A stretch of DNA of 64,000 nucleotides, from sequence record PQ327946.1, one strand, 5' to 3'. Positions 538 through 41,001 of the stretch are shown here, one piece after another. Under the pieces are notes generated by a model. It searched no databases and was not told the origin of the DNA. It saw only the letters and a program-made list of their open reading frames with translations. Both the position numbers and the translations under genes were made by a program. Within the stretch, counting starts at the first letter, position 1, and each line of letters starts with the position of its first letter. This DNA is from a phage.

Positions 538-2863
<2,326 letters not shown>

Positions 2864-2890: not shown

Positions 2891-4873
2891 ATGGCACTTC
2901 TCTCTCCGGGCGTTGAGCTCAAAGAAACTACCGTACAGAGTACTGTAGTTAATAACTCCACTGGTACCGCTGCCCTGGCTGGAAAATTCCAATGGGGACC
3001 TGCATTCCAGATTAAACAAATCACTGATGAAGTTGCATTGGTTGATATGTTTGGTACTCCTAATACGGATACAGCAGATTATTTCATGTCTGCTATGAAC
3101 TTCCTTCAATATGGTAATGACCTTCGTGTTGTACGCGCAGTTGATCGTGATGCTGCTAAGAACTCATCTCCTGTAGCAGGCAATATTGAATTCACAATCT
3201 CTGCTGCTGGTAGTAACTATGCAGTTGGTGATAAAATTATCGTTAAGTATTTGACCGAAACTGTTGAAGCAGATGGTTATGTCACTTCAGTTGATGTCGA
3301 TGGTAAAATTCTTAACATTTATATCCCAACCGGTAAAATTATTGCTCGTGCAAAAGAAATTAATGAATATCCGGCATTGGGTTCTAATTGGACCGCCGAA
3401 GTTGCCAGTTCTTCTTCTGGACTTTCTGGCGTTATTACAATTGGTTCTATCGTAACCGATTCAGGTATTCTGTTAACTGAAGTTGAAACTTCTGAAGAAG
3501 CTATTACTTCTCTAACTTTCCAAGAATCTATTAAAAAATACGGTGTCCCAGGCGTAGTTGCTCTTTATCCTGGTGAACTTGGCGACCAGCTCGAAATTGA
3601 AATCGTATCTAAAGCAGACTATGACAAAGGTGCTTCAGCCCAGTTAAAAATTTATCCTGATGGTGGTACTCGTGCGTCTACTGCTAAAGCAATCTTTGGA
3701 TATGGCCCACAAACTGATGACCAATATGCAATTATCGTTCGTCGTAACGATGCTGTAGTTCAGAGCGTAATTCTTTCTACTAAGCGTGGTGAACGCGATA
3801 TTTATGGTAGTAATATCTTTATTGATGATTTCTTTGCTAAAGGCGCAAGCAATTATATTTTCGCTACTGCACAAGGTTGGCCAAAAGGTTTCTCTGGCGT
3901 AATCAAACTGAGTGGTGGCTTATCATCTAATGAAACGGTTGACGCTGGTGATTTAATGGAAGCTTGGGATTTGTTTGCTGACCGTGAATCTGTTAATGCG
4001 CAGTTGTTTATTGCCGGTTCTTGTGCAGGTGAATCTTTAGAAGTTGCTTCTACAGTTCAGAAACATGTTGTAGCAATTGGTGATTCTCGCCAAGATTGTT
4101 TGGTTCTTTGCTCACCGCCACGTGCAACTATAGTCGGTATTCCTGTTAATCGTGCAGTTGATAATCTGGTCGATTGGCGTACTGCGTCAGGAACTTACAC
4201 TGATAATAACTTTAATATAAGTTCTACTTATGCTGCTATTGACGGTAACTATAAATATCAATATGACAAATATAATGACGTGAATCGTTGGGTTCCATTA
4301 GCTGCTGATATTGCTGGTCTTTGTGCTCGCACAGACAATATTTCTCAGCCTTGGATGTCTCCTGCCGGTTATAACCGTGGACAAATTCTTAACGTTATTA
4401 AGCTTGCAATTGAAACTCGCCAACCACAGCGTGATCGTTTGTATCAGGAAGCTATTAACCCTGTTACTGGTACCGGTGGTGATGGGTATGTTCTGTATGG
4501 TGATAAAACTGCCACTTCTGTTCCTTCACCATTTGACCGTATTAACGTTCGTCGTTTGTTCAATATGGTTAAAACGAACATTGGTTCAGCATCTAAATAT
4601 CGCCTGTTTGAATTGAACAACGCATTTACCCGTTCTTCTTTCCGTACAGAGACTTCTCAATATCTACAGGGTATTAAAGCTCTTGGTGGTGTATATAACT
4701 TTAAAGTTGTTTGTGATACTACCAATAACACCCCAGCAGTTATCGACCGTAATGAATTTGTAGCTACTTTCTACTTACAACCTGCCCGCTCGATAAATTA
4801 TATTACGTTGAACTTTGTAGCAACAGCAACTGGTGCCGATTTCGACGAACTAATTGGTACTGTAAGTGGCTAA
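2891..4873 (+). CDS. 18: contractile tail sheath protein gp18
   Basis: 660 aa; T4 gp18-like; preceded by TATAAATA late promoter. Confidence 0.9.
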   Translation: MALLSPGVELKETTVQSTVVNNSTGTAALAGKFQWGPAFQIKQITDEVALVDMFGTPNTDTADYFMSAMNFLQYGNDLRVVRAVDRDAAKNSSPVAGNIEFTISAAGSNYAVGDKIIVKYLTETVEADGYVTSVDVDGKILNIYIPTGKIIARAKEINEYPALGSNWTAEVASSSSGLSGVITIGSIVTDSGILLTEVETSEEAITSLTFQESIKKYGVPGVVALYPGELGDQLEIEIVSKADYDKGASAQLKIYPDGGTRASTAKAIFGYGPQTDDQYAIIVRRNDAVVQSVILSTKRGERDIYGSNIFIDDFFAKGASNYIFATAQGWPKGFSGVIKLSGGLSSNETVDAGDLMEAWDLFADRESVNAQLFIAGSCAGESLEVASTVQKHVVAIGDSRQDCLVLCSPPRATIVGIPVNRAVDNLVDWRTASGTYTDNNFNISSTYAAIDGNYKYQYDKYNDVNRWVPLAADIAGLCARTDNISQPWMSPAGYNRGQILNVIKLAIETRQPQRDRLYQEAINPVTGTGGDGYVLYGDKTATSVPSPFDRINVRRLFNMVKTNIGSASKYRLFELNNAFTRSSFRTETSQYLQGIKALGGVYNFKVVCDTTNNTPAVIDRNEFVATFYLQPARSINYITLNFVATATGADFDELIGTVSG

Positions 4874-35874: not shown

Positions 35875-36183
35875 TTACATAAGAAGCAAACGCTCCGCCG
35901 GAGTACCATCAACCGAAATTACTTTATCAAGGCGGAAAGAACGCCACTGGCCTAACTTGGTATCGAATGCTCGAACTGATTCACGAGGTTCATAACGAAC
36001 TTCTGTTGCTGGATTGTTATTTTCATATTTGACTTCAAGTTCATCGCGCGAAGCAAACATAGTGCGTACCTCGCCGTTAGCCTTTTCAAATACAACACAA
36101 TGAACGCCTACAGACAGAATAGTTTTAATACGTTCACGAAGAACCATAGTTTCTTGTTCAGTTAAAATCATATTATTCACCAC
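35875..36183 (-). CDS. hypothetical protein (31.1-like, 102 aa)
   Basis: ORF between cd and 31. Confidence 0.4.
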   Translation of the reverse strand: MVNNMILTEQETMVLRERIKTILSVGVHCVVFEKANGEVRTMFASRDELEVKYENNNPATEVRYEPRESVRAFDTKLGQWRSFRLDKVISVDGTPAERLLLM

Positions 36184-36754
36184 AAAAGTTTCGGATTTGT
36201 TCCCAATTCAGAGAACGAAGATTATTACGAGAGTACTGAATTACTTCAATACCAGCTTGTTTAAGAATGTCTGCCCAATTTTCAGGAGATCGGTCATATA
36301 ATTCTGCATATACAACCTTTTTAATACCTGACTGTGTAATAGCTTTAGTGCAATCAGGACATGGAGAAAGTGTCGTATACAACGTAGCACCTTCAATAGA
36401 ATTACCTTTGCGAGCAGCAAACAAAATGGCATTCAATTCTGCATGGATTTCATTATTAGCAGACCATGCACTATGAGCGGCCCGATGTTCTTTAGCCAAA
36501 ACAAAATTATCTGCCCGTCCAAATGATGTAGTGCCTTCTTTATGCCCAGCAACGATGACCGGGCTTGGTTTATTCTTCAACCAACCGTTTTCGGATGCAT
36601 GTTCACAACAGTTAACACCACCTGCAGGTGAACCATTATATCCGGTAGAAATAATGCGTCCATCTTTTTCAATGACGGCACCAACTTTCCATGAACAACA
36701 TTTTGATTCTTGAGAAATCAGATATGCAATCTGAAGGTATGTGCTAGCTTTCAT
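36173..36754 (-). CDS. cd: dCMP deaminase
   Basis: 193 aa; zinc-binding deaminase motifs HAELNAI and SPCPDC. Confidence 0.9.
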   Translation of the reverse strand: MKASTYLQIAYLISQESKCCSWKVGAVIEKDGRIISTGYNGSPAGGVNCCEHASENGWLKNKPSPVIVAGHKEGTTSFGRADNFVLAKEHRAAHSAWSANNEIHAELNAILFAARKGNSIEGATLYTTLSPCPDCTKAITQSGIKKVVYAELYDRSPENWADILKQAGIEVIQYSRNNLRSLNWEQIRNFCGE

Positions 36755-37746
36755 TATTGAACCTTATTAATATAAGTTAACAGCTCTTTAGTTTGTTCCC
36801 AACTGATGCACGCATCGGTAATGGAAACGCCATAGGACATATTATCAGAAATTTTTTGATTTCCTTCATGTAGGAATGATTCTATCATAATTCCTTTGAC
36901 CAAATCATTAGCTGCTAAATTTTTACCAATACCAATTTGATTGCTATAATGTCCAGCAGCGTTTGCATGGCTACAGTCAACCATTACATAATGATTCAGA
37001 CCTACTGCACTTGCTTTGTTAGAAGCTTCTTGAATATCAGAAGAATGATAGTTCGGGCCGTTGGTCCCGCCACGCAATACGATATGCGTATTCTGATTAC
37101 CTTCAGCTTCAACAATGCCTACAGTACCATCGACGTCCATACCCATATACCGATGAGGCCAGGCGGCACTATACATCGCGTCTGTAGCTACTTTAATAGA
37201 ACCATTGGTTGCGTTCTTGAAGCCTACGCACATCGGTAGACCTGAAGCAATTTCACGATGTGTCTGACTTTCAGTCGTACGGGCGCCAATAGCAACCCAT
37301 GAGAAAATACCAGAAAGATACTTAATCGTGAATGGGTCTAATACTTCAGTTGCTAATGGAAGTCCCATACGTAGAAGTTTACGACACAATGTTCGTGCAA
37401 CTATAAGACCGTGGTTCATATCAAAACTTCCGTCAAGATATGGATCATTTACAAGACCTTTCCAACCTACGGTAGTTCGAGGCTTTTCAAAATAAACGCG
37501 CATCACTAACAGAACATTAGGAAGACGAGTTTGAAGTTCAGCCAGACGTTTGCCGTATTCAACAGCAGCAATAGGGTCATGAATTGAACAAGGACCTACA
37601 ACAATAAGTTTGCGTGGGTCTTCACCGTTCATAATCGAATTAACTTGTTCGCGATGAGAAGCCACTTGTGATGCGTAAGCTTCCGACAAAGGAATAATCT
37701 CAGCCAGTTCTTTTGGAGAAATAAGTTTTCTGATGACAGGTAACAT
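36754..37746 (-). CDS. 3-deoxy-D-arabino-heptulosonate-7-phosphate (DAHP) synthase, class I-alpha (AroG/AroF/AroH family)
   Basis: 330 aa with family motifs GPCSIHD, KPRTTVGWKGL, GARTTESQTHRE, DCSHAN, IESFLHEGNQ, SITDACI; stop/start fused to cd. Confidence 0.85.
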   Translation of the reverse strand: MLPVIRKLISPKELAEIIPLSEAYASQVASHREQVNSIMNGEDPRKLIVVGPCSIHDPIAAVEYGKRLAELQTRLPNVLLVMRVYFEKPRTTVGWKGLVNDPYLDGSFDMNHGLIVARTLCRKLLRMGLPLATEVLDPFTIKYLSGIFSWVAIGARTTESQTHREIASGLPMCVGFKNATNGSIKVATDAMYSAAWPHRYMGMDVDGTVGIVEAEGNQNTHIVLRGGTNGPNYHSSDIQEASNKASAVGLNHYVMVDCSHANAAGHYSNQIGIGKNLAANDLVKGIMIESFLHEGNQKISDNMSYGVSITDACISWEQTKELLTYINKVQ

Positions 37747-37866
37747 AACAATCCTTAGGAGATATAAACAGATTCTGATTCAACAATACCTTTAACCGGA
37801 TTAGACAGGCTAAGTTGGTAGTTCTCAGATTTATGACCATTCACGATAGTAATGAGATAGCTCTCA

Positions 37867-38103
37867 TTATAGTGTTCCATATACTCGAGTTGCTTCAACA
37901 AGACCATCACTGCCTAATTTAAGATTAGTAATTTGGTCACCATCTTTAGGATTAACGATTATGAGAAAAGAACGTGGAGATTCTTGAATAACTCGTAATG
38001 TTGCATCTTGGAAACGTTCAGACACTTTATTGATGAGTGCTTGAGCAAATTCTTTTACTTTAATCTGAAATTCGTGTACTGTAATTGGGTTTTCACTTAG
38101 CAT
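37867..38103 (-). CDS. hypothetical protein (78 aa)
   Basis: ORF downstream of early-promoter-like motif near 38133-38161. Confidence 0.35.
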   Translation of the reverse strand: MLSENPITVHEFQIKVKEFAQALINKVSERFQDATLRVIQESPRSFLIIVNPKDGDQITNLKLGSDGLVEATRVYGTL

Positions 38104-38132
38104 TTCTATTTCCTCATTTGTTGGTAGAGTTA

Positions 38133-38161
38133 TAGTATCACAACTCCACCATGTTGTAAAC
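38133..38161 (-). promoter_or_regulatory. early promoter for the accessory island / DAHP synthase operon
   Basis: GTTTAC-N18-TACTAT upstream of ORF 37867..38103. Confidence 0.5.
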
Positions 38162-38163
38162 CA

Positions 38164-38439
38164 TTAAATTGCTTTGCATTCAATTTTTTGTGTACCGAAA
38201 TTGATATCACATTGGATAACTAAATCGCCGTCAAGATCAAATACCACTATGACGTGTGCAGACCCAGGGAGAAGAGTAATAGCAATAGAATCTACTTGGT
38301 CTGGGAGCAAAGCATTGAGTACATGAGTTAGTTGAGCATGAACTCTGAGTTCGGCTGCATTATCAAGCACTTCAAACATATTATTAGCAATAATCTGACT
38401 GAAGACTACCTTTACAATTTCAGAATAAGTTGGGAACAT
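38164..38439 (-). CDS. hypothetical protein (91 aa)
   Basis: ORF in accessory island. Confidence 0.35.
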   Translation of the reverse strand: MFPTYSEIVKVVFSQIIANNMFEVLDNAAELRVHAQLTHVLNALLPDQVDSIAITLLPGSAHVIVVFDLDGDLVIQCDINFGTQKIECKAI

Positions 38440-38446
38440 AATTACC

Positions 38447-38671
38447 TCAGTGCACAGTATTTACTTTAACTCGAACAACAAATCGCTCGGTTGGTTCACC
38501 TACAGGAACAAACTCTACATGATATTCACCTTTGTAACGAGTATTCAGATCGTTACGAATTCCTGCGAGTTTGTTGATTAATGTAGGACTCATATTAAGT
38601 CCCACTAGTTTACGAAGCATTTTGTATGCTTCATCTTCGATTTCATGATGTTTATCGTACATAGTTTTCAT
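38447..38671 (-). CDS. hypothetical protein (74 aa)
   Basis: ORF in accessory island. Confidence 0.35.
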   Translation of the reverse strand: MKTMYDKHHEIEDEAYKMLRKLVGLNMSPTLINKLAGIRNDLNTRYKGEYHVEFVPVGEPTERFVVRVKVNTVH

Positions 38672-38852
38672 TTAACCATTCAATTGCCTGGTCGACGTTA
38701 TCAAATATACTGCCGTCCAACCATTCTTCATGTTCATAGTCCAGCACATCAATACCGAACCGTCCATTTACTAAAGGCCATACGCAGAAGAAAAAGCATT
38801 TACGTTTTTCAATTTCTTCGATTGTACGAAAAATCTTTTCGATATTATTCAT
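38652..38852 (-). CDS. hypothetical protein (66 aa)
   Basis: ORF in accessory island; overlaps neighbours. Confidence 0.3.
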   Translation of the reverse strand: MNNIEKIFRTIEEIEKRKCFFFCVWPLVNGRFGIDVLDYEHEEWLDGSIFDNVDQAIEWLNENYVR

Positions 38853-39567
38853 AGGTTTTCCATTTGCGGCCTAATTGCCAATCAGGATGGCTCAATCTAG
38901 GGTCGTTTTCATCTGTTGTAGAAGATTTCTTACCTGAAATATGGATAAGCCATTTTCTGGATTTAGCTGCTTTAGAATAGTTTTCTTTTGCCTTATCTGA
39001 ACGAATCTTACCTTTATTCGCTTCGGATATTTTATTACCCCATTCTATAATAGCTTCTTCGCTCATAAAATCTTTTACATTTTTACCGTACATAGGATTA
39101 TTTTCGCCTTCAAATGAATTACCATTTTTAAGACGACTTTCTTTAGATTTAATCCCATGCCCTGGTAATTTCTTGCCTTTAATCCATGGCACGGCACCGT
39201 TTTTATATCTCTGTTTTTGTGTTTCTGAAATTTTTAATGAAGTTTCAGGGCTGGAATTAACATTAATACGGTTTTCATTGATATAATCCCAGCCTCCTTC
39301 TCCACCAGGTTTCAAATTATAATTAGTATCCAATTTTATAAATTCTTTAGTTACTAATTCGGCTTCTAAATCATATGCTTCTTGTTTAGTTTCAAATATT
39401 TTTATGATTTCTTTATTAAAAGAATCTTTACCATATTTTGATTCGGCATTTTTAAAAGCTGTACCAGAACCTAAATAAGAATCATTTTCTTTTAAGGTCT
39501 TATGAACCCCTATATAAATTTTGTTGTTAACCAAACATGTGGTTTTATACACAGTGTACTTTTCCAT
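38845..39567 (-). CDS. GIY-YIG homing endonuclease (Seg-like), start trimmed to MEKYTVYK
   Basis: GIY-YIG motif VYKTTCLVNNKIYIGVH..YLGSG; paralogous to the SegD-like ORF at 10926..11585; GAGGTGA Shine-Dalgarno before the trimmed start. Confidence 0.7.
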   Translation of the reverse strand: MEKYTVYKTTCLVNNKIYIGVHKTLKENDSYLGSGTAFKNAESKYGKDSFNKEIIKIFETKQEAYDLEAELVTKEFIKLDTNYNLKPGGEGGWDYINENRINVNSSPETSLKISETQKQRYKNGAVPWIKGKKLPGHGIKSKESRLKNGNSFEGENNPMYGKNVKDFMSEEAIIEWGNKISEANKGKIRSDKAKENYSKAAKSRKWLIHISGKKSSTTDENDPRLSHPDWQLGRKWKTYE

Positions 39568-39614
39568 TAGAATCACCTCTATAGATATTTATACTTAACT
39601 ATGGAGATTTCTAA

Positions 39615-40701
<1,087 letters not shown>

Positions 40702-40702
<1 letters not shown>

Positions 40703-41001
40703 TATTTTATTCCTAAGAAAATTTCAAGAATACGAATGTTATGCTCGCGCCGGTCTTTATTAATTTCAGCAACGTTTTTATTAATTGACGTACTTCTAAC
40801 GTTTGAAGAAATAAATTTAATCATATGACTTTTGAGTTGTTGCAAATCCAACCCTTTTTCTTTAGCAGCTTTACGAAGAGCTTTACCTGCTTCATCTAGT
40901 GCCTTTGCTGCATCTTTGTCATAATTGCCGAGTGACATTCCACGACAGATATCAATATACTCATCAGACCGTTTGATGTAATTCTCTAGTAATGTTTTCA
41001 T
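40702..41001 (-). CDS. hypothetical protein (99 aa)
   Basis: ORF; early promoter motif upstream near 41030-41059. Confidence 0.35.

Follow-up and report, generated by a model that had tools for sequence, protein, structure and literature searches.

The interval between pseT and cd in this phage (PQ327946.1, of which a window of 64,000 nucleotides was analyzed) very likely brings together two unrelated things: a mobile cassette coding for a homing endonuclease, whose cleavage, homing and late-only translation we infer, and a set of ancestral early genes of the T-even phages. We document here the anatomy of this interval, the homology and distribution of its genes, its mosaic flanks and the purifying selection acting within it. 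It is a clear but unsurprising instance of an established type of phage element, namely a selfish endonuclease lodged at the boundary between pseT and a run of small genes. What it adds is an uncharacterized Seg-type lineage that occupies one constant site, the pseT/cd.4 junction, across at least five T4-like genera. Further, the end-points of recombination are visible at nucleotide resolution, making this a convenient natural system for the study of cross-genus homing and co-conversion.

In the direction of transcription, along the minus strand, the order is pseT, a gene for a 240-aa GIY-YIG/NUMOD3 endonuclease, four small ORFs, a DAHP synthase gene and cd (Table 1). All the ORFs that the initial annotation had listed between pseT and the DAHP synthase gene are indeed present on this strand, but where it placed the endonuclease after the small ORFs, the endonuclease is transcribed first, right after pseT. 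Its gene begins with the ATG at 39567, the GTG at 39576 falling within the Shine-Dalgarno sequence, and its stop is overlapped by 8 nt by the start of cd.4 (ATGAATAA). A search of the 64-kb window with Rfam recovered zero RNA families, tRNA included, and a search of the region for repeats found none of note, with no tandem duplication around the locus in the window.

Table 1. Features of the pseT-to-cd interval (window coordinates) and the evidence for their assignment
Feature	Coordinates	Strand	Evidence
pseT (polynucleotide kinase/phosphatase), upstream flank	39615-40514	-	Pfam HAD_PNKP 1e-58 and AAA_33
Endonuclease cassette leader	39566-39615	-	Left-end motif, late promoter, Shine-Dalgarno, predicted hairpin
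Putative free-standing SegB-like GIY-YIG homing endonuclease gene, 240 aa	38845-39567	-	Pfam, PHROG, SegB alignment
Putatively co-converted 5' end of cd.4	38784-38852	-	cd.4 alignment
cd.4 ortholog, 66 aa, phrog_2360	38652-38852	-	T4 Cd.4 identity and synteny
74-aa ORF (71 aa from ATG at 38662), phrog_3609	38447-38671	-	PHROG match
cd.3 ortholog, 91 aa, DUF7355	38164-38439	-	T4 Cd.3 identity, Pfam
Plausible early promoter, homologous to T4 Pe133295	38132-38160	-	Scan, T4 annotation, alignment
cd.2 ortholog, 78 aa, DUF7320	37867-38103	-	T4 Cd.2 identity, Pfam
Possible fifth small ORF, 41 aa, between cd.2 and DAHP synthase gene; coding status uncertain	37755-37880	-	
DAHP synthase gene	36754-37746	-	
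cd	36173-36754	-	

The endonuclease combines an N-terminal GIY-YIG domain (Pfam PF01541, 30.0 bits against a cutoff of 22.6; SegE_GIY-YIG, PF19835, 26.8 bits against 25) with a NUMOD3 motif at residues 144-165 (PF07460, 26.2 bits against 20.4) and a C-terminal ...DWQLGRKWK tail, and it belongs with the PHROG family labeled ‘homing endonuclease’ (phrog_314, 7e-44). The protein is complete and can be aligned over its whole length with homologs from four genera; across an alignment with T4 SegB and four homologs, Y4, Y7, Y18, G20, E68, N84 and the C-terminal GRK.K are invariant. An equivalent of the catalytic Arg27 of I-TevI could not be located: no Arg is invariant in this alignment from the YIG motif to E68, and no solved structure, I-TevI included, was matched at the sequence level. 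The best match in the T4 genome is segB (identity 34% in a local and 37% in a full-length global alignment); the copies compared are all intact, with dN/dS at 0.08-0.12. We assign the gene to the accessory, free-standing Seg-type homing endonucleases, in agreement with the initial annotation, and regard it as SegB-like but not SegB itself. Orthology with T4 SegB was rejected given that the gene adjoins pseT, that no tRNA family is present in the window, that the core of the SegB motif is not enriched and that identity is only 34-37%. The annotation in the databases also calls for correction: the gene is SegB-like, rather than an ‘intron endonuclease’ or the SegD of the PNJ-9 and P896 records, as its best match within T4 falls on segB. 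The SegB cleavage motif RAWTSGAAC was considered as a target at the 5' end of cd.4; however, its core occurs at 0.64/kb in the window and is also retained in the seg-carrying WFbE185, and hence offers no target signal. No cleavage site could be inferred for the endonuclease.

The cassette measures approximately 770 bp (38845-39614) and sits exactly at the pseT/cd.4 junction, which reads ...TTTTTAATG... in seg-less genomes, where the stop of pseT and the following start overlap, and ...TTTTTAGTTAGAAATC... in those carrying the endonuclease. Among full-length Mosigvirus-type records of the region only PNJ-9 and WFbE185 possess it (2 of 138), so that close relatives differ at one exact position in having or lacking the cassette. 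The identical junction is occupied in five genera, Mosigvirus, Gaprivervirus, Karamvirus, Bragavirus and Marfavirus; every Bragavirus-type record matched has the endonuclease, and the Marfavirus copy, in Klebsiella phage EI, is broken into fragments. Across genera the endonuclease surpasses pseT in conservation in each of three comparisons, and cd in all but the one with PM2: its identity is 91.6% to P896 (pseT 76.6%, cd 73.1%), 74.9% to KMB20 (pseT 59.3%, cd 66.5%) and 61.4% to PM2 (pseT 45.1%, cd 65.0%). Within Mosigvirus, by contrast, its identity falls below that of cd (92.5% vs 97.9%).

The flanks of the cassette are mosaic on both sides. On the cd.4 side, the gene is chimeric, with the first ~69 nt of the Dhakavirus/Gaprivervirus type and the remainder of the Mosigvirus type. 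These ~69 nt differ by 1 base from the Gaprivervirus (P896) allele and by 3 from the Dhakavirus (VR5) allele, and are not alignable with the seg-less Mosigvirus allele, the alignment to the seg-less S143_2 ending at 38783; in WFbE185 the crossover point in cd.4 is different and earlier. On the pseT side, a mismatch map against the seg-less SF and SQ17 shows that the last ~18 nt of the gene (39616-39633) represent a seg-linked, donor-type allele ending in ...VASGDF with a TAG stop, as opposed to the usual Mosigvirus ...VNHGDF with a TAA stop overlapping the next ATG. At the level of sequence, these flanks and the cross-genus identities together bear the marks of co-conversion and of a phylogeny incongruent with that of the host genomes. 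We posit that in a mixed infection the enzyme would cut the seg-less allele near the pseT/cd.4 junction, and that recombinational repair would then copy the endonuclease gene from the seg-carrying genome together with part of its surroundings. P896 itself is not the direct donor, because the 5' flank in cd.4 is near-identical to its allele yet the endonuclease gene is only ~90% so. A divergent Tequatrovirus-like block further inside pseT (39696-39873) was considered as another co-conversion tract, but it is also found in the seg-less Mosigvirus genomes SF, SQ17 and TH58 and therefore cannot be counted as a tract of the cassette.

The leader of the cassette carries several predicted regulatory elements. 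All five genera retain a left-end motif, GTTAGAAATC, which is predicted to pair with the Shine-Dalgarno sequence (GAGG at 39579-39576) and the start codon in a hairpin, the loop of which holds a perfect T4-type late promoter (TATAAATA at 39593-39586), a sequence with only 5 minus-strand copies in the 64 kb. The fold is weak in the window (-13.1 kcal/mol, z -1.8, with 13 of 200 shuffles folding equally well), where the stem has two mismatches relative to P896; the homologous hairpin of this Gaprivervirus reaches -25.2 kcal/mol (z -6.1). The promoter-in-hairpin design recurs in four other genera, with TATAAATA in P896 and PM2 and AATAAATA in KMB20 and EI. A scheme of this kind has been described for I-TevI/II/III and Aeh1 mobE and predicted for segB (PMC2988022, PMC2330249). 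By analogy, expression of the endonuclease would be late only: early transcripts reading through from upstream would fold the hairpin and hide the ribosome-binding site and AUG, while those begun at the late promoter would be translatable because they lack its 5' arm.

Comparison with characterized systems helps place the cassette. With T4 SegB, the activity of which has been verified experimentally (PMC2330249), it shares the N-terminal GIY-YIG block, the NUMOD3 motif, the C-terminal W..GRK.K tail and an upstream hairpin occluding the ribosome-binding site. However, SegB resides in the tRNA gene cluster and the endonuclease studied here at the pseT/cd.4 junction, and with a different insertion site the target presumably differs too. 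SegB recognizes the tRNA T-psi-C motif (PMC2330249), no signal of which type was found here. The cassette also has a perfect late promoter in the hairpin, whereas for segB the sources differ, the original study finding none nearby (PMC2330249) and a review marking a predicted late one (PMC2988022). I-TevI of the td intron has the same arrangement of a GIY-YIG domain, linker and DNA-binding module, and a late promoter within or next to the hairpin, as predicted here; its hairpin masks the ribosome-binding site of transcripts that read through in the early and middle periods, confining translation to late infection (PMC2988022). Unlike the intron-encoded I-TevI, the present gene is free-standing and has no sequence match to the solved I-TevI structures. 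SegE, SegF and SegG are comparably intergenic and sporadic, with mosaic flanks of the sort that co-conversion during double-strand-break repair should leave (PMC2988022, PMC2330249), but for them cleavage sites have been mapped and homing shown in crosses, both of which we can only deduce for the cassette.

The small ORFs have a distinct history. Three of them are orthologs of T4 genes and lie, in the order of the T4 record, between pseT and cd: the 66-aa ORF corresponds to Cd.4 (61% identity, BLASTP E 4.5e-30; phrog_2360 at 5.6e-38), the 91-aa ORF to Cd.3 (79%, 1.8e-52; Pfam DUF7355 at 6.5e-35) and the 78-aa ORF to Cd.2 (65%, 5.5e-34; Pfam DUF7320 at 1.5e-35), by which names they should now be annotated. 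The 74-aa ORF (phrog_3609 at 3.5e-41) is without a counterpart in the T4 cd-pseT interval. The phrog_3609 slot is shared by Gaprivervirus (P896), Karamvirus (KMB20) and Marfavirus (EI), with a same-sized ORF there in Dhakavirus VR5, and the ORF also matches one beside the polynucleotide kinase gene of Citrobacter phage Moon (Moon-type); a search of 1.84 billion representatives gave it only 5 matches with E<=0.001, of which 4 had E<=1e-10. The claim that these ORFs have no recognizable domains survives only insofar as none has a known function, since DUF7320 and DUF7355 are detected at E ~1e-35 and all four fall in PHROG families that lack an assigned function (phrog_1504, phrog_1695, phrog_2360, phrog_3609). 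AlphaFold2 predicts an alpha2-beta2 protein for the 74-aa ORF (pLDDT 86), for which a fold search gave no significant match, and two helices against a four-stranded sheet for the cd.3 ortholog (pLDDT 89.7), for which such searches gave generic matches only. An origin of cd.2, cd.3 and the 74-aa ORF as paralogs was rejected at profile-profile probabilities of 9.7%, 0.1% and 0.4%. The products are probably non-enzymatic, single-domain alpha/beta proteins, and we tentatively suggest that in early infection they might bind proteins of the host or of the phage, the likeliest of the roles open to them though short of an even chance. The searchable literature yielded nothing on cd.2-cd.4, on DUF7320/DUF7355 or on any seg gene located at pseT. 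A possible fifth ORF, of 41 aa, is annotated in PNJ-9, SF and LF82-9; it has zero family matches, and the only two nucleotide differences among relatives are both nonsynonymous.

The orthologs also share with T4 an early promoter between cd.3 and cd.2. Although a consensus scan by itself is uninformative (17 sites against 15.8 expected), the site on the minus strand at 38160-38132 (TTTACA-17-TACTAT with an upstream TG, i.e. GTTTAC ... TG..TACTAT) aligns base for base with the T4 cd.3-cd.2 spacer, annotated there as Pe133295, as well as with P896 and S143_2. By this homology an early promoter, as originally proposed at ~38133-38161, is plausible. Its position between cd.3 and cd.2 means that within the cluster it would serve cd.2 alone, together with the DAHP synthase gene and cd, and the proposal that the entire cluster is co-transcribed with these two genes fails, three of the four ORFs lying upstream. 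The T4 interval differs in having cd.5 and cd.1, the latter slot being taken by the DAHP synthase gene in the window, and in lacking the additional 71-74-aa ORF between cd.4 and cd.3.

An alternative, advanced by the initial annotation, is that the whole interval constitutes one variable accessory island, with the small ORFs as host-takeover or anti-defense cargo co-transcribed from the promoter at ~38150. The ORFs are indeed small early genes with no known function, seemingly confined to T4-like phages, and the interval does vary by genus, with the DAHP synthase gene replacing cd.1, cd.5 being present in T4 and an extra 175-184-aa ORF occurring between cd.3 and cd.2 in PP01, P896 and VR5. Yet cd.4, cd.3 and cd.2 retain their order and position in ~1000 records across genera, the same four ORFs are found in seg-less and seg-carrying genomes alike, and the promoter is downstream of three of them. 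When the four proteins were joined into one query for a translated search, 1003 phage records matched, 236 of them with all four, and the Tequatrovirus records among those listed have three of the four; this distribution contradicts a presence that varies among otherwise close relatives. Because ~1000 phage records thus have at least part of the set, we regard the small ORFs, on comparative grounds, as conserved early genes in ordinary positions rather than variable cargo, albeit outside the essential T4 core set, and they merit no priority as such cargo. This largely matches the outcome that the initial annotation had itself named as a refutation. Similarly, the suggested link to host takeover or anti-defense could not be demonstrated by family comparison or fold searches: the ORFs have no similarity to known anti-defense or defense-related families, and no homology or fold of a characterized inhibitor was found. 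A single island is accordingly unlikely, and cd.4, the 71-74-aa ORF, cd.3 and cd.2 would instead represent an ancestral T-even early transcription unit running from pseT to cd.

The endonuclease might alternatively have been domesticated, being retained for the benefit of the phage too if its cuts promoted segmental amplification or preferential inheritance of pseT, with its role in tRNA repair, or of the small ORFs. The precedent is T6, where SegB, the closest T4 homolog of the enzyme, drives amplification of anti-defense loci (PMC13096335); the strong purifying selection, the cross-genus conservation in excess of pseT and mostly of cd, and the consistent presence in Bragavirus could be read likewise. 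Against this, its rarity in Mosigvirus and the broken copy in EI are what one sees with a selfish element that is gained and lost in cycles, and neither a tandem duplication near the locus nor a signal for the T6 SegB motif is seen in the window, leaving domestication quite unlikely. We consider it very unlikely that such cuts amplify or favor pseT and the cd.x genes with at least one of the small proteins additionally acting as an inhibitor of a defense or host factor. Were SegB-like amplification near pseT nevertheless real, seg-carrying phages would gain fast escape from anticodon-nuclease or other defenses. At the other extreme, the gene could be a dead remnant that has lost both cleavage and mobility, as might be surmised from the hairpin stem degraded relative to P896, the rarity of the cassette and the fragmentation of the related EI copy; but the intact ORF with its end-to-end alignments, the low dN/dS and the preserved GIY-YIG residues make this highly improbable. 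The reading we favor therefore remains that of a selfish endonuclease cassette beside ancestral early genes.

We also considered whether T4 cd.5 is a decayed remnant of the endonuclease, and rejected this as the T4 and PP01 spacers, translated in all six frames, gave nothing but negative scores against the family profile. T4 and PP01 do have 19-20 nt (ATGGAAAACTTATGAATAA) in common with the stretch where the seg gene ends and cd.4 starts; these bases probably correspond to the translation-initiation region of cd.4.

Sequence comparison assigns the window to a T4-like Mosigvirus phage: over the 4.5 kb surrounding the locus, identity is 98.6% with Escherichia phage PNJ-9 and 94-98% with many other genomes of that genus. 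All genes of the region are coded on the minus strand. ORF calls, with Pfam and PHROG matches for the endonuclease, recovered every object that the initial annotation had placed here. While this observation is confirmed, the reading of small ORFs and endonuclease as one accessory island of variable, possibly anti-defence or host-takeover cargo is supported in part: the ~770 bp cassette (38845-39614) is a rare mobile SegB-like homing endonuclease of a known kind, beside four conserved T4-type early genes.

Genes of the pseT-cd interval, and extra ORFs in the cd.3-cd.2 gap of other phage loci (own coordinates)
Feature	Coordinates	Strand	Remark
pseT	39615-40514	-	first in transcription order
GIY-YIG ORF	38845-39567	-	directly after pseT
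66-aa ORF (cd.4)	38652-38852	-	
74-aa ORF	38447-38671	-	
91-aa ORF (cd.3)	38164-38439	-	
78-aa ORF (cd.2)	37867-38103	-	
41-aa ORF (putative)	37755-37880	-	overlaps cd.2 end, spans gap up to DAHP synthase gene
DAHP synthase gene	36754-37746	-	class I, phrog_5045; in slot of T4 cd.1
cd	36173-36754	-	
Extra ORF, PP01 (L011)	1224-1751		
Extra ORF, P896 (L004)	1648-2190		
Extra ORF, VR5 (L014)	2117-2671		

On sequence evidence, the small ORFs are conserved, syntenic early genes of unassigned function rather than variable cargo. The T4 record holds cd.5, cd.4, cd.3, cd.2 and cd.1 from pseT to cd, and three of these have orthologues here in the T4 order (3/3), with the 66-aa protein 61% identical to T4 Cd.4, the 91-aa protein 79% to Cd.3 and the 78-aa protein 65% to Cd.2. 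The latter two match DUF7355 and DUF7320 of Pfam, respectively; the description of these ORFs as lacking recognisable domains is accurate insofar as no functional family was matched. The 74-aa ORF, which more probably starts at its second ATG to give 71 aa, belongs to phrog_3609 and has no partner within the T4 pseT-cd interval. In Gaprivervirus P896, Karamvirus KMB20 and Marfavirus EI it fills the equivalent slot, and an ORF of equal size lies there in Dhakavirus VR5. The family is tiny: 1.84 billion representatives clustered at 50% identity include five matches at E<=0.001, of which four reach E<=1e-10. When the four proteins were joined end to end, a translated search matched 1003 phage records, 236 of which have all four ORFs; the Tequatrovirus records among the matches listed have three. 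Exactly these four are also present in relatives that lack the cassette (seg-less), such as S143_2.

Confident AlphaFold models of Cd.3 (pLDDT 89.7; a four-stranded sheet carrying two helices) and of the 74-aa protein (pLDDT 86.1; two strands and two helices) found no match in the PDB at E<=0.001 with Foldseek, paralogy was undetectable among the three small-protein families tested, and the small proteins matched no defence-related or curated families. Our working guess is that they might be early, non-enzymatic protein-binding factors. Further downstream, the DAHP synthase gene has counterparts at the equivalent place in Klebsiella phage EI and Proteus phage PM2 (Bragavirus), and is absent from that place in T4, P896, VR5 and KMB20. 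The 41-aa ORF is annotated in PNJ-9, SF and LF82-9; its DNA is nearly invariant across Mosigvirus, both differences seen (2/2) are nonsynonymous, and we treat it as putatively coding only.

That the endonuclease gene is accessory was borne out. Coverage of 80% or more of the 4.5-kb query is reached by 138 records; the gene is present in the two with 100% coverage, PNJ-9 and WFbE185, and the remaining matches listed reach 81-82%, with ~770 bp missing. Its product matches GIY-YIG, SegE_GIY-YIG and NUMOD3 in Pfam, all above cutoff, and phrog_314 'homing endonuclease' (7e-44). Homologues at 67-90% DNA identity occur in only 13 records, and lie immediately downstream of pseT in 4/4 loci examined (P896, KMB20, PM2 and EI), from which the locus context is taken; Ent31, EnC07, two Providencia phages and MP1 also gave DNA matches. 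The EI homologue (locus L005, 610-1148) is split in two fragments, and MobE-like HNH endonuclease fragments lie between the DAHP synthase gene and cd of EI (3083-3677), making two decaying homing endonuclease genes within one short interval. Against a T4 genome the top match is segB, at 34% identity across 98% of the length (37% when aligned globally, with motifs common to both at the N- and C-terminal ends), and the GenBank labels 'SegD' and 'intron endonuclease' are therefore imprecise. Orthology with SegB was nevertheless rejected: unlike SegB, whose neighbourhood is the tRNA cluster, this endonuclease has no tRNA genes around it, and the target motif of SegB gave no signal here. A pseT-junction site for such a cassette is not described in the literature searched.

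Conservation across genera is incongruent with that of the neighbouring genes. Identities for the endonuclease, pseT and cd, respectively, are 91.6%, 76.6% and 73.1% with P896, 74.9%, 59.3% and 66.5% with KMB20, and 61.4%, 45.1% and 65.0% with PM2, the endonuclease exceeding pseT in all three comparisons and cd in two; in the comparison inside Mosigvirus its identity is below that of cd (WFbE185: 92.5%, 91.3% and 97.9%). Horizontal movement would give such a pattern. The ORF is intact in every copy compared, with dN/dS of 0.08-0.12, so the protein it encodes is a working one. The seg-less junction reads ...GA(T/C)TTTTTAATG..., so that the stop codon of pseT shares bases with the start codon that follows, and all seg-carrying genomes compared read ...TTTTAGTTAGAAATC... 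On the cd.4 side, the alignment with S143_2 ends at 38783, and cd.4 is chimeric in the window: the first ~69 nt are one base off the P896 allele and three off that of seg-less VR5, and the ~130 nt that remain match the Mosigvirus allele exactly (in WFbE185 the crossover comes earlier, at ~nt 36). The last 18 nt of pseT are a non-Mosigvirus allele, with VASGDF and TAG in place of VNHGDF and TAA. A chimeric cd.4 and a foreign pseT end are what co-conversion during double-strand-break repair would be expected to leave behind, a process established for SegE, SegF, SegG and SegB (PMC2988022; PMC2330249). Amplification or preferential transmission of the adjacent tRNA-repair and small-ORF genes, for which SegB offers a precedent (PMC13096335), strikes us as a very improbable further role.

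A separate, larger block, ~180 nt of pseT (39696-39873), is ~34% divergent from most Mosigvirus and 92-94% identical to Tequatrovirus (PP01, EcNP1). We do not credit it to the cassette because seg-less SF, SQ17 and TH58 have it too; it resembles a patch left in the phosphatase domain by older recombination between genera. In T4, the last ~19 nt of cd.5 (L008, 8806-9033) with the cd.4 start read ATGGAAAACTTATGAATAA, nearly identical to the endonuclease 3' end and cd.4 start of the window (38845-38860); the idea of cd.5 as an endonuclease relic found no support in a profile search.

The 38-nt leader holds a perfect T4 late promoter, TATAAATA (39593-39586, minus strand), a sequence that occurs just five times on the minus strand of the 64-kb window. 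In the predicted fold it lies in the loop of an RNA hairpin (39615-39566) in which the Shine-Dalgarno GAGG and the AUG are base-paired to the conserved left-end motif GUUAGAAAUCUC. This hairpin is weak in the window (-13.1 kcal/mol, z -1.8, two mismatches relative to P896) and strong in P896 (-25.2 kcal/mol, z -6.1); KMB20, EI and PM2 have other stems of equal design, whose 3' arm holds the Shine-Dalgarno and whose 5' arm or loop holds a promoter-like element. The same arrangement has been described for I-TevI, I-TevII, I-TevIII, segB and Aeh1 mobE: early read-through RNA is untranslated and late RNA begins within the hairpin (PMC2988022). By analogy we infer late-only expression of the endonuclease: early read-through transcripts would be translationally silent, and late ones would start inside the hairpin. 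Where the cassette is absent, pseT ends and cd.4 begins within one TAATG (seg-less locus L003, 4244), suggesting translational coupling of the two genes; with the cassette inserted, the endonuclease stop overlaps the cd.4 start (ATGAATAA, 38845-38852). If the endonuclease is translated late only, early cd.4 expression may be altered.

The early promoter proposed at about 38133-38161 corresponds to TTTACA-17-TACTAT with an upstream TG at 38160-38132 (minus strand). The consensus scan found 17 sites against 15.8 expected, so this one is not significant by consensus alone; it aligns with the T4 cd.3-cd.2 spacer, annotated there as early promoter Pe133295. Both T4 and the Mosigvirus phages keep the GTTTAC element and the -10 region; P896 keeps the former, its -10 region being not clearly aligned. 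Lying between cd.3 and cd.2, the promoter can serve only cd.2 within the cluster, contrary to the proposed cluster-wide co-transcription; it would further serve the possible 41-aa ORF, the DAHP synthase gene and cd. Genes lying upstream of it must rely on promoters further up, such as TTTACA-17-TATAAT at 41058-41030 (minus strand), the region's best sigma-70-like match (11/12). Located upstream of a 99-aa ORF (40702-41001), this is a candidate early promoter for that ORF, a 63-aa ORF, pseT, seg, cd.4 and cd.3. An additional ORF of 175-184 aa lies in the cd.3-cd.2 gap, at or beside the early-promoter spacer, in several genomes of Tequatrovirus, Gaprivervirus and Dhakavirus; this gap, empty in the window, is the real insertion hot spot of the interval.
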